From Halorutilales archaeon Cl-col2-1 (GTDB taxonomy: Archaea; Halobacteriota; Halobacteria; Halobacteriales; Afararchaeaceae): a stretch of 64,000 nt of DNA. The DNA lies in the NCBI GenBank assembly GCA_041891055.1, contig CP169074.1, positions 1,871,031 to 1,935,030 on the forward strand. The letters are read 5' to 3'. A program made the position numbers and the translations under genes. Under the pieces are notes generated by a model that saw only the letters and a list, made by a program, of their open reading frames with translations, had not been told where the DNA came from and did no database searches. Every line of letters begins with the position of its first letter. Within the stretch, counting starts at the first letter, position 1. Of the stretch, positions 21,455 to 59,270 are shown piece after piece.

Positions 21455-22612
21455 ATGTCAGTAGAACCCGAGACAGTCGAGTCGAAGCTCGAAGACAGCG
21501 AGCTTCCTCAGAGACTCCACGACAAAGTCAAGGACGCAGTCGGCGAGGAAGAAGTCACGGAGGCACAGATCGACGAGATCATAGACCAGGTCGAGGACAG
21601 GTACAGGTCGACACGTATAGACCCGCTCGAACCCGTGGGTACCGTGAGCGCTCAGTCTATAGGGGAACCCGGAACCCAAATGACTATGAACACCTTCCAT
21701 TACGCCGGAGTCGCCGAGATCGATGTCACACAGGGTCTCCCTCGTCTCATAGAGCTCGTCGACGCGAGGAAGGAGCCCGACACTCCGATGATGACGGTCT
21801 ACCTCAAGGACGACTGGGCGACCGACCGAGAGAAGGCGCGTGAGGTCGTCTGGGACATAGAGTCGACGACTATACTCTCGCTCGGCGACATCTCTACCAA
21901 CGTCGCCGAGATGGAGGTCTCTATAAACTTAGACGATGAGATGCTCGACGAGCGTCTCCTCTCAGTCGACGACATAGCAGACAAGATAGAGGCGGAGCTA
22001 GGTGTCGACGTCCGAGCGAACGGAACACGTGTCTCTTTCGGACCGTCGTCGCCGTCGTACCGCGAGCTTCTCCAGCTAATAGAACAGCTACGTGAGATCA
22101 CGTTCAAGGGAATCGAGGAGATCGATAGGGTCGTCATACGTAAGGAAGACGTCGGCGACAGGGAGGAGTACGTCCTCTACACCGAGGGAAGTGCACTCAA
22201 GGACGTCATACAGGTCGAGGGGGTCGACGAGACACGTACGAGAACCAACAACATACACGAGATGGCTGATGTCTTCGGCATAGAAGCTGCGAGGAACTCC
22301 CTCATAGACGAGATGACCTCCACGCTCGAGGAACAGGGTCTCGAAGTCGACATTAGACACGAGATGCTCGTCGCAGACATAATGACGATCACGGGAGAGA
22401 TACGTAGCATAGGAAGACACGGTATATCGGGTGCTAAGGAGAGCGTCCTGTCGCGTGCCGCCTTCGAGGTCACTGTCAACCAGCTTCTCGACGCCGCCGT
22501 TCACGGAGAGATCGACGACCTCGACGGAGTCATAGAGAACGTCATCGTCGGACAGCCCATAAAGCTCGGCACGGGAGACGTTGACCTCGTTATGGGACGT
22601 CCCGAGGACTAG
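21455..22612 (+). CDS. rpoA2: RNA polymerase subunit A'' (Rpo1C); stop codon lies inside an inserted double-hairpin element
   Basis: [41 protein letters not shown]. Confidence 0.97.
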
Positions 22613-22657
22613 TCCTCGTGTGCGCGTGAATCGGAAGATTCACGAATGTCCCGAGGA
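22599..22657 (+). mobile_element. 49-nt double-hairpin mini-element (copy E1) inserted at the rpoA2 3' end
   Basis: Hairpins CGAGGACT/AGTCCTCG (22603-22618) and CGTGAATC-GGAA-GATTCACG (22625-22644); direct repeat GTCCCGAGGA at 22599 and 22648. Confidence 0.75.
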
Positions 22658-22702
22658 TAGCACTAGCGACGACGAGTAGTCAGAGTAGAAAGACTCTCTT
22701 AC

Positions 22703-23353
22703 TTACTGTTTCGAGACCGTCCAGCTACCTGACGCCGACATTCCGGTGTTACTCTCGCCGCTCCAGTCGCCCTCTATCTTCGACGAGTCGTCGGAGACGT
22801 CGCCCGACATGTCCATGTTCATCGTCATGTATGACATCGCACGTCCCGAGGCGTCAGCATCGACCTCACCGTCCGACACAGAGCCTTCTATGGGTCCCGA
22901 GGCGTCACCTTCTATGCTTCCCGAGACCTCGTTGTTCGAGTAGTCGACTGTGACTGTCATGTCGCCGCCGACGTTGACGCCTCCCGTCGCTTCGCCGCTC
23001 CAGCTTCCCGAGTACTCTACGGTTTCGGTTCTTCCGGAACTCTCGTCTTTACTGCTACTGTCCGAACCCGATCCGGAGTCGGAGCCGGAGTCGGACGTCG
23101 TCTCAGTCTCCGACTTCTCCCCATCGGTCTGGTCTCCGGATGAGTCGGAGTCAGAGTCGGAGCTTGTCTTCGTGTCGGATTCGGATGACTCGGTCTTTGT
23201 CTCCGACTTGGAGTCCGAATCCTCGCTCGAACTCGACGAATCGTCGTCTTCCGAACTGCTGTCCTCCGAAGACTTAGCTTCCCCACCTGCGCAGCCGGCT
23301 ATTCCCCCCATTACAGAGGCACCCGTTAGTGCCAGAAACTGTCGTCTTTTCAT
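22703..23353 (-). CDS. Tat-exported lipoprotein with Ser/Asp-rich linker
   Basis: MKRRQFLALTG...IAGC (twin arginine plus lipobox); start at ATG 23353. Confidence 0.8.
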   Translation of the reverse strand: MKRRQFLALTGASVMGGIAGCAGGEAKSSEDSSSEDDDSSSSSEDSDSKSETKTESSESDTKTSSDSDSDSSGDQTDGEKSETETTSDSGSDSGSGSDSSSKDESSGRTETVEYSGSWSGEATGGVNVGGDMTVTVDYSNNEVSGSIEGDASGPIEGSVSDGEVDADASGRAMSYMTMNMDMSGDVSDDSSKIEGDWSGESNTGMSASGSWTVSKQ

Positions 23354-23603
23354 GTTTCCCCCAATCCCACAGCGTTTGAAATACTGTGATGCACTCACAA
23401 ATTCACCTCAGTTGCTATATAAGGGTTTCTAACGTTGTGTTAGTAATACAGACGTAGTACTATCGCCGTAACCCATTTTGCTACTACGAGAGTAATTGGA
23501 AATAGTCAACCGGCATACCTATATATCCTTATTTTAAATTAGCTATCCGTTGACCATGATGTACTGTTGTTACAATGGTGTGTAATCATGGGTGAAACAA
23601 AAC

Positions 23604-33447: not shown

Positions 33448-34185
33448 ATGTCGGAAACTCAGACACGAGAGACGGAACAGTCCAGGTTGGGGGACGTTCA
33501 TGCCGTCGGTATAGGTCCCGGTAGTTCCGAGTACGTCACTCTCAGGACGAAACGTCTCATAGAGGACGCAGACGTGGTCGCGGGATTCACCGCAGTAGTC
33601 GAGAAGATCGAGGAACACATCGACGGTGCCGAGGTCGTCGAGATGGGGTACGCCGACGAGGCGGAGAAACTCGAATACGTCGCCGACCTGAACCGCGAGG
33701 GCGACGACGTCGTCGTATGCCTCATGGGTGATGCCAACTTCTCGGGATACCAGTACCTCGAAAAGGTCGAGGACGCCCTCGACGCCGACGTAGAACTCGT
33801 GCCGGGTATAAGTTCAGCACAGGTCGCGGCGAGCCGTTCGAGGACGCCGTTCGAGGAGTCGGTCTTCGTCACACTCCACAAGACGTACGACGAGGGAGAG
33901 ATAGAAGACGACCTCGACGTCATAGTCGACGCGGTGACCTCGGGAAGAAACGCGATTGTGATACCCCTTCCTTACTCGTTCATGCCTGAGGACGTCGCCG
34001 AGCTTCTGATCGACGAAGGAGCCGACACCGACGCCGACGCCTACGTCTACGAGGAGCTGACGATGGACGAGACGCGGTGGGAGGGAACTGTAGAGGATCT
34101 TTCCGACCTCGAAGGCGACGAAGGTAAGGGTGACAGAGAAGAGAGCGCGTTCTCCGATATGACCATCATGGTCGTATCACCATAA
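33448..34185 (+). CDS. cbiE: cobalt-precorrin-7 C5-methyltransferase
   Basis: VGIGPG, MGDANFSGY, PGISSAQVAA; cob cluster context. Confidence 0.82.
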   Translation: MSETQTRETEQSRLGDVHAVGIGPGSSEYVTLRTKRLIEDADVVAGFTAVVEKIEEHIDGAEVVEMGYADEAEKLEYVADLNREGDDVVVCLMGDANFSGYQYLEKVEDALDADVELVPGISSAQVAASRSRTPFEESVFVTLHKTYDEGEIEDDLDVIVDAVTSGRNAIVIPLPYSFMPEDVAELLIDEGADTDADAYVYEELTMDETRWEGTVEDLSDLEGDEGKGDREESAFSDMTIMVVSP

Positions 34186-59103: not shown

Positions 59104-59270
59104 GTGAACTACCCCTGCACTCGCCACCTTCAGCAGTGGTTCGAGAGAGCGAAGCTCTCTTGCCATCACGAAAGACCTTCGGTCTTTTGAACGTCCCGAG
59201 ATCTGCGATCTCGTGGGCTCGTGAATCTAAGATTCACGAACGACTCCTTGAGGAAGGGGACTTAGCGCCT
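59104..59270. mobile_element. IS200/IS605-type end remnant carrying two nested double-hairpin elements (E3, E4)
   Basis: GTGAACTACCCC...CTCCTTGAGGAAGGGG frame, related to 62464, interrupted by four perfect 17-21 nt hairpins at 59144, 59171, 59197 and 59219. Confidence 0.7.

Follow-up and report, generated by a model that had tools for sequence, protein, structure and literature searches.

A two-hairpin repeat at the end of rpoA2 in Halorutilales archaeon Cl-col2-1 and the probably mobile family to which it belongs

The end of rpoA2 and its 49-nt unit

The window analyzed here is a 64-kb stretch of the 2.06 Mb genome of Halorutilales archaeon Cl-col2-1 (G000), and the subject is a 49-nt unit with two hairpins that lies across the end of rpoA2, the gene for subunit A'' of RNA polymerase (Table 1). 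The gene is preceded in the list of open reading frames (ORFs) by ORFs of the sizes of rpoH, rpoB'', rpoB' and rpoA', and homologs of rpoA2 were present in 39 of the 41 related genomes. Comparisons were made with a sister species of the same genus (G001) and across a set of 41 genomes. The unit is one of a family of short repeats and is missing from the end of rpoA2 in the sister species. It is most probably a mobile unit of the kind known from other haloarchaea as PATEs, inserted after the two species split and without a change to the end of the protein.

The two arms of hairpin 1 (22603-22610 and 22611-22618) are 100% complementary, with a loop of 0 nt, and those of hairpin 2 lie at 22625-22632 and 22637-22644. 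Folding z-scores were modest, -2.6 as RNA and -3.15 as DNA. The direct repeat GTCCCGAGGA had two exact matches in the window (at 22599 and 22648), among 22 matches at ≤1 mismatch, and every register inside this repeat is equivalent as a boundary of the unit. Deletion of the 49 nt brings GAT AGC ACT AGC GAC GAC GAG TAG into the frame of rpoA2, with a stop at 22677-22679. An earlier reading of this DNA, referred to below as the original prediction, had listed the stop codon within a palindrome, the second hairpin, the 10-nt repeat spaced 49 nt apart and the frame that opens after deletion, and all of these facts of the sequence were confirmed. Near-copies of the 10-nt repeat, GTCCCGAGGC, are found at 22843-22852 and 22894-22903, inside the convergent ORF and within a repeated 19-23-nt coding motif; these look unrelated to the hairpin element.

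Table 1. Features of the window, with positions counted from its first letter
Feature	Position	Strand	Basis or remark
rpoA2 (RNA polymerase subunit A'', 385 aa, ...LVMGRPED then TAG)	21455..22612	+	ORF list and translation; Pfam PF04998 on the identical protein P0001
Left copy of the 10-nt direct repeat GTCCCGAGGA, in the last rpoA2 codons	22599..22608	+	also in the empty site of G001
49-nt two-hairpin unit, start CCGAG, end GAATGTC	22602..22650	+	bounds by the insertion rule from six other filled/empty pairs
Hairpin 1, perfect 16-nt palindrome, stop codon at its center	22603..22618	+	inverted repeat; stem covaries across 9 aligned copies
TAG stop now used by rpoA2	22610-22612	+	ORF and sequence
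Conserved linker between the hairpins, part of the family motif CTCGTGTGCnCG	22619..22624	+	invariant alignment columns
Hairpin 2, 8-bp stem, GGAA loop	22625..22644	+	inverted repeat
Right copy of GTCCCGAGGA: GTC is the 3' end of the element, CCGAGGA the start of the right flank	22648..22657	+	sequence
"Orphaned tail" of the original prediction (D-STSDDE-stop)	22656..22679	+	in frame only after the 49-nt deletion
TAG in the right flank	22658..22660	+	aligned with the TAA stop of G001 (pairwise alignment)
Convergent 231-aa ORF, no Pfam family, ortholog in G001	22703..23398	-	stands where relatives have nusA
Family empty site	33490..33499	+	in G001 a 54-nt unit with this 10-nt sequence on both sides
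Second family copy in the window	59187..59246	+	R1 match, E 6.6e-23

The RpoA'' protein of the sister species is 97% identical to that of G000, and its gene ends ...GGACGTCCCGAGGAC TAA without hairpins. The spacer between rpoA2 and the convergent gene, which is the same gene in both species, is 41 nt in G001 and 90 nt in G000. Metagenome contigs carried both states of the site. The empty form, as in G001, was found on X2 and X3 contigs, while an X1 contig that spans 22350-22778 without a gap and with 8 differences carries the filled form, from a slightly different strain. The contigs of four metagenome runs contained no joints, no 49-nt gap and no element-free allele with a tail, a weak negative because contigs drop rare variants. 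A metagenome scan with a 17-nt native stretch gave 116 matches, none of which (0 of 116) was rpoA2-like when compared with 409 nt of the gene, in a collection from which records near the source genome may be excluded. Protein searches returned nothing closer than G001, followed by a relative 83% identical over residues 200-385.

The repeat family and its insertion sites

A 101-nt query around the site recovered two further copies in G000 (E 8.6e-12 and 5.3e-8), and a motif scan added more. Nine G000 copies were aligned. The alignment has 28 invariant columns and a common plan in which (A)CGTC is followed by CCGAG, hairpin 1, CTCGTGTGCnCG, hairpin 2 and CGAACGTC. All 134 of its 134 stem cells are paired, with two-sided changes in 11 cells, and two of the eight stem pairs of hairpin 2 show two-sided changes. 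The observed covariation score was reached by none of 500 shuffles, and slid controls paired at 18-41%.

A covariance model (R1) was built from these nine copies, with no sequence contributed by G001. R1 gave 126 matches in G000 at E ≤1, and matched the window at 22593-22652 with E 1.5e-21, the rpoA2 copy being itself one of the model's seeds. With stricter filters there were 82 matches in G000, 87 in G001, 24 in G005, 16 in G035, 14 in G011 and 0-6 in each of the others, and 23 of the 41 genomes had an R1 match. The rpoA2 pattern is more than chance, because there are further copies in G000 and because the 87 matches in G001 lie outside the model's seeds. Units are frequently found in tandem arrays joined by GAACGTC, and GAACGTCCCGAG occurs 13 times in G000 as the junction between units. 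A 77-aa tnpB remnant (TNB-domain match C1:1930421-1930549) is situated at a distance of 145 nt from the window's second copy, which has more hairpins downstream.

Including rpoA2, seven sites were available with and without the unit. Units present in G000 and absent from G001 were found in a phosphodiesterase gene (an insert of 51 nt) and a class I/II aminotransferase gene (48 nt), and the reverse was found at L068 (54 nt; empty in G000 at window positions 33490-33499), L073 (54 nt) and L085 (51 nt). The SAM synthetase gene contains a 54-nt insert in both species and is empty in G011 and G027. The sites filled in G001 came from 20 G001 copies fetched with their flanks. Four of these were clean pairs, filled in G001 and empty in G000 (L068, L073, L085 and L077, the last of which was left out of the insertion rule because it belongs to another subfamily), L081 and L083 were filled in both genomes, and 14 had flanks that were repeat-rich, rearranged or unmatched. 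In G001 the L068 unit lies in an ORF and in its frame, and contributes ...DVRESEDSRAHQNAKRSG... close to the N-terminus.

In seven of the seven pairs (C/T)(G/A)TC closes the left flank, and the same letters close the unit, as GAACGTC or a variant. The identity at the junction is 2-10 nt across the seven pairs, and can be read as a targeting motif or as a duplication of 2-10 nt. Hairpin 1 lies wholly inside the insert in the filled/empty pairs. This pattern is what an insertion of the IS200/IS605 type beside a short targeting motif would look like.

Elements of the IS200/IS605 group (IS608, ISDra2) use a Y1 HUH transposase, TnpA, which acts on single-stranded hairpin ends. G000 has one intact Y1_Tnp (PF01797) match (133.7 bits; C1:979038-979397, an open frame of 138 aa), and a hairpin array lies 66 nt downstream of this only tnpA. 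The TNB domain of TnpB had 33 matches in G000. At 11 of the 31 tnpB loci compared, the TNB domain is followed at 143-308 nt by an R1 unit, oppositely oriented in every case, and at 8 of the 31 a unit lies 1.0-1.4 kb upstream of the domain, where about 0.024 per gene would be expected near tnpB by chance. In common with IS200/IS605 elements, then, are the single intact Y1_Tnp gene beside some 30 tnpB genes, the units at the ends of tnpB elements, the insertion always 3' of (C/T)(G/A)TC, like the unit's own 3' end, and the lack of a target duplication of fixed length. Here the hairpins stand much nearer to the ends than in IS608, and the 10-nt identities at two of the sites fall outside the textbook mechanism. 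A 210-nt stretch with six hairpins, set within a long-range GC-rich inverted repeat, is present in three copies at 98% identity, at C1:979411-979620 (directly after the only tnpA), C1:533432-533642 and C2:51514-51724.

The PATEs of Haloquadratum are described as having no transposase and no inverted terminal repeats, with near-terminal palindromes related to IS605-type ends and a targeting sequence of 4-6 nt (PMC3119063). The same paper reports 52-bp "terminal-only" forms (HqIRS46, ISHwa23) with strain-specific insertions, which "can be mobilized", and its authors considered mobilization of such forms hard to square with the known dependence on tnpA (PMC3119063). The family described here best fits this already known class of transposase-less IS200/IS605 derivatives, to which it is likened by described features and not by sequence. 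Like the PATEs of Haloquadratum walsbyi and Natronomonas, the units have a haloarchaeal host and a length of about 50 bp (48-54 nt in the seven filled/empty pairs), which is too short for a transposase gene. They have no terminal inverted repeats, as neither of the ends, CCGAG... and ...GAACGTC, repeats the other in inverted form, and the two hairpins are internal and come to within 1-7 nt of the ends. Palindromes lie near both ends and are related to the ends of tnpB transposons of the same genome, and insertions are specific to a strain or species, with a short conserved oligonucleotide, possibly a targeting motif, on one flank. The differences are that the hairpins here begin within 1-2 nt of the unit ends, that units form tandem arrays joined by GAACGTC, and that some reside in frame in protein genes, a feature not mentioned for PATEs in the parts of PMC3119063 covered here.

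The original prediction had called the 49 nt a mini-element and had proposed its insertion into the end of rpoA2. The former is borne out by the repeat family, the covarying stems, the units at the ends of tnpB elements and the empty site in G001, and the latter by that empty site together with a spacer that is 49 nt shorter. A miniature inverted-repeat transposable element (MITE) with a 10-nt target duplication was considered and rejected, since there are no terminal inverted repeats and the junction identity varies from 2 to 10 nt with no fixed duplication. A 104-nt element of another hairpin subfamily, present in G001 and not in G000 (L077, G001:C1:34212-35070 compared with G000 C1:1645733-1645742), is flanked by an 8-9-nt direct repeat, TCGCTCAT, and behaves more like a MITE. 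In bacteria, REP or BIME sequences with RAYT are short hairpin repeats in arrays, with an IS200-like Y1 enzyme as their presumed means of movement; REPs are extragenic, and RAYT genes typically have pairs of REPs at their sides. The present family differs in that the only Y1 gene belongs to an IS605-type unit and in that the repeats also enter genes.

The RpoA'' C-terminus and the route of insertion

The history favored here, at a probability of roughly two in three, is that a PATE-like mobile unit was inserted at the end of rpoA2 after the split of G000 and G001, and that the end of the protein is unchanged, most likely with no residue lost. Membership in the family, the empty site and the identical C-terminus of the sister species are what was observed. 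A unit of the subfamily starting CCGAGGACT, which is older than the split as seen from the SAM synthetase copy, would have entered 3' of ACGTC, 9 nt before the rpoA2 stop. The native end CCGAGGAC-TAR (...CCC GAG GAC TAR) is nearly the same as the first bases of the unit, so that the last three codons and the stop would have been duplicated. The protein would still have ended ...GRPED, and the non-coding right-hand copy would then have lost one C, an order of events that we infer. The STSDDE frame downstream would be a by-product of this 1-nt difference in the non-coding copy. Mobilization may have been in trans, by the single Y1 transposase of G000 acting through single-stranded hairpin intermediates.

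The C-termini of related proteins are in keeping with this history. RpoA'' of G001 (P0121) ends VMGRPED-TAA, and P0122 (83% identity) ends VMGKPE. Nineteen of the 33 nearest relatives without an intein end ...GKPE, and other ends were GSPD, DRPGD, GKPGED and GRPGGD. No STSDDE-like tail was found among the relatives' C-termini that were read; one survey of these covered 30 loci, of which 19 were read and the 11 on the other strand were left out. In the right flank, GGA-TAG-CACT-AG aligns with GGAC-TAA-AACTCAG of G001, which places the TAG at 22658-22660 opposite the G001 stop and one C short. This TAG is probably a relic of the stop used before the insertion, now out of frame through the missing C. 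Because G001 has PED-TAA, because near relatives mostly stop there, and because the TAG of the flank aligns with the TAA of G001, a stop right after PED is most simply ancestral.

Several points weigh against the favored history. Exact removal of one unit by the family rule (insertion after ...GTC, with a unit that ends ...GTC) leaves GGA-TAGCAC, which is the allele PEDSTSDDE-stop with its stop at 22677-22679, and the favored history therefore needs either the extra loss of 1 nt in the right-hand copy or an atypical event of 48 nt. Ser-rich acidic tails do occur in some relatives (...GKPGSSKSESD in G027, P0016), so that a tail of this kind would be nothing unusual. A single sister species was available for comparison, and the spacer is too diverged for a firm alignment. 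The covariation of the stems was scored on the same alignment from which the structure was read, and the involvement of TnpA is suggested by co-occurrence only. The variable junction repeats (2-10 nt) could also mean microhomology-mediated copying and not a transposase. Finally, the right flank and the start of the unit are identical over several nucleotides at rpoA2, an identity that is absent from the other six pairs, save 3 nt at L068, and that the known IS608-type mechanism does not explain.

The first of these points, and the Ser-rich acidic ends of relatives (GKPGSSKSESD and GKPGSGGSKSESD), also speak for the reading given in the original prediction, in which RpoA'' ended ...MGRPEDSTSDDE before the insertion and the unit supplied a TAG of its own, which removed six residues. 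The element-free allele would then have had the DNA ...GAGGATAGCAC... and the protein ...PEDSTSDDE. The codons GAC GAC GAG are coding-like, and the exact 12-mers of this stretch recur many times in G000. This loss of a tail is nevertheless unlikely. The original prediction held that the C-terminus had been rewritten at a cost of six residues, and named relatives that end at PED without tail or hairpins as the observation that would speak against it; the sister species ends PED-TAA and has neither, and the claim as made is probably wrong. A lost tail needs first a 1-nt indel in the G000 lineage to give rise to it and then an insertion that happened to bring back the exact end of the sister species, a coincidence (an Asp codon plus a stop) put at a few per cent by our own estimate. 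The TAG of the right flank is aligned with the G001 stop, the contigs of the four metagenome runs provide no element-free allele with a tail, and chance alone would leave most frames with six open codons ahead of a stop.

Far less probable still, to the point of being nearly negligible, is a local origin in which the end of rpoA2 was duplicated and inverted where it stands, to form a structure that is not mobile. Native rpoA2 sequence does make up both the left arm of hairpin 1 and the 10-nt repeat. Dozens of copies elsewhere, however, share the linker, the second hairpin and the 3' motif, and the same hairpin 1 stem is found at unrelated sites whose empty alleles are without it. The same observation disposes of the target-templated stem formation that the original prediction had suggested, as the SAM synthetase copy has this stem while its empty site in G011 and G027 is without the stem sequence. 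A hairpin 1 templated by the target was also ruled out by the phosphodiesterase, aminotransferase, L073 and L085 copies, in which the whole hairpin is inside the insert.

How the unit came to this site is a separate question. At rpoA2 the right flank shares 7 nt with the start of the unit, or 10-11 nt if the missing C is allowed, and a 7-nt match would be expected by chance, for six pairs, at about 4 in 10,000 by our own arithmetic. The IS608-type mechanism reads only 4-5 nt on the left flank. The native rpoA2 end, ACGTC-CCGAG, is the consensus junction between tandem units, and the native site at L068, GAACGTC-CCC, is another mimic of such a junction. Since both sites mimic the unit junction, a preference for targets that resemble ACGTC-CCGAG, or else copying by microhomology, is a fair but tentative hypothesis, and the homology-guided targeting raised in the original prediction is plausible. 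Another gene, at C1:1358787, has a second native match of 16 nt to the rpoA2 end and carries no unit.

The unit may instead have been copied in by homology, through a template switch or recombination with an array, with the native end ACGTCCCGAGGA mimicking a junction between tandem units. This route is possible and is judged the less probable one. It would account for the 10-nt junction identities at rpoA2 and at L068 (native site GAACGTCCCC) and for a range of 2-10 nt among the seven pairs, unlike a fixed target duplication; the 13 copies of GAACGTCCCGAG at unit-unit junctions offer such sequence, and a unit starting CCGAGGACT existed before the two species split. In five of the seven pairs, however, the identity is only 2-6 nt and always ends in TC, which a short targeting motif fits better. 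The gene at C1:1358787 is identical to the rpoA2 end over 16 nt and is without a unit, and G000 yielded no array with the exact rpoA2-type unit that could have been the donor.

A further proposal, which takes up an idea of the original prediction, is that the hairpins have been kept as the 3' structure of the rpo operon, as a terminator or a stabilizer of the RNA, now that nusA no longer follows rpoA2. The unit is directly after the stop and between convergent genes, and the transcript could form two stable stems. This seems improbable, more so than the loss of a tail. No hairpin-plus-T-run pattern was found in 22400-22900 and no Rfam match at E ≤1 in 22300-23000, and this gene order is found in the sister species too, where the hairpins are missing. 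The 53 family loci, 13 of which are convergent, 11 tandem, 11 divergent and 18 inside ORFs, show no bias to the 3' ends of genes; these contexts come from crude longest-ORF calls, and several of the cases inside ORFs (97-181 aa) are probably spurious frames through hairpin arrays.

In G011, G027, G005 and most other relatives nusA begins a few bases past rpoA2, where G000 and G001 have the convergent 231-aa ORF. The nusA_arch model TIGR01952 had nothing above cut-off in G000 (22 bits, to a 621-aa ORF) and no match in G001, while G011, G027 and G005 reach 157-173 bits, and tblastn with the NusA proteins of four relatives had no match in G000 at E ≤1e-3. The nusA gene may have been lost from the genus. 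The RpoA'' protein of G001 (C20, L002; P0121) is interrupted by an intein (869-874 aa; Pfam PF14528 and PF14890) at about residues 73-103 of the G000 protein, and the rpoA2 gene of G000 is intein-free.

In-frame copies and the meaning of the family

Several copies of the family lie within genes and in frame. In G000 the hosts are SAM synthetase (AdoMet_Synthase), a Phosphodiest enzyme, an Aminotran_1_2 enzyme, a thioredoxin-fold protein, a 209-aa protein without a Pfam family, a tyrosine recombinase and three tnpB paralogs, and two more ORFs with an in-frame unit were found in G001. All five inserts within ORFs for which the empty allele is known are multiples of three (54, 51, 48, 51 and 54 nt, in SAM synthetase, the Phosphodiest enzyme, the Aminotran_1_2 enzyme, an ORF with a HADGD motif and an ORF beginning MSETQTQ). 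The rpoA2 copy, with its 49 nt and internal stop, is not in frame and adds no residues. In the seven host genes other than those of insertion sequences or integrases the unit is antisense to the gene in every case (7 of 7), and the in-frame units are read as hydrophilic acidic peptides, for example ...DVRESEDSRAH.... The insert in SAM synthetase carries ...NTADDYDVRESEDSR..., and corresponds in a comparison with the M. jannaschii enzyme (4l4q) to a clean gap of 17 residues between ...NTADD and the GTSAE motif.

Three diverged tnpB paralogs (C1:129306-130610, 218815-220047 and 1843541-1844899; L057) share a nearly identical in-frame unit, ...NGTSRSGSFDGSQIEDLRTVL..., just before GVDLG, with an outer inverted repeat around it. 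This points either to insertion more than once at one spot or to a conserved nucleic-acid element within tnpB.

Rickettsia palindromic elements (RPEs) are palindromic repeats found in frame within unrelated housekeeping genes; they are bacterial and about 150 bp long (PMC10969869). At the level of the family, and only there, the units resemble RPEs in being in-frame palindromic repeats in unrelated housekeeping genes that are presumably read as additional surface peptides. RPEs as described there differ in their bacterial host and their length of about 150 bp, are unrelated in sequence to the units found here, and have no parallel in the rpoA2 copy itself, which is not in frame. A tentative proposal, somewhat more probable than copying by homology and still short of an even chance, is that the units are an archaeal counterpart of RPEs, derived from IS200/IS605 elements, which settle in frame as acidic loops and prefer mimics of their own junctions, so that rpoA2 was hit without a change to its protein. 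A literature search, which did not extend to the supplementary tables of PMC3119063, returned no report of in-frame PATE-like insertions in archaeal genes, and this is not proof that there are none.

At rpoA2 an essential gene has been grazed by what is probably a mobile element and its protein is most likely the same, an example of how precisely such elements can be inserted at no cost. The family as a whole is a source of natural filled/empty pairs, with which the movement of IS200/IS605 remnants of about 50 nt could be worked out. It also indicates that a haloarchaeal genome as small as 2.06 Mb can harbor such units within its coding sequence, where they form in-frame loops. For annotation, this means that odd insertions in conserved enzymes are not errors, and the same insertions bear on how proteins gain surface loops.

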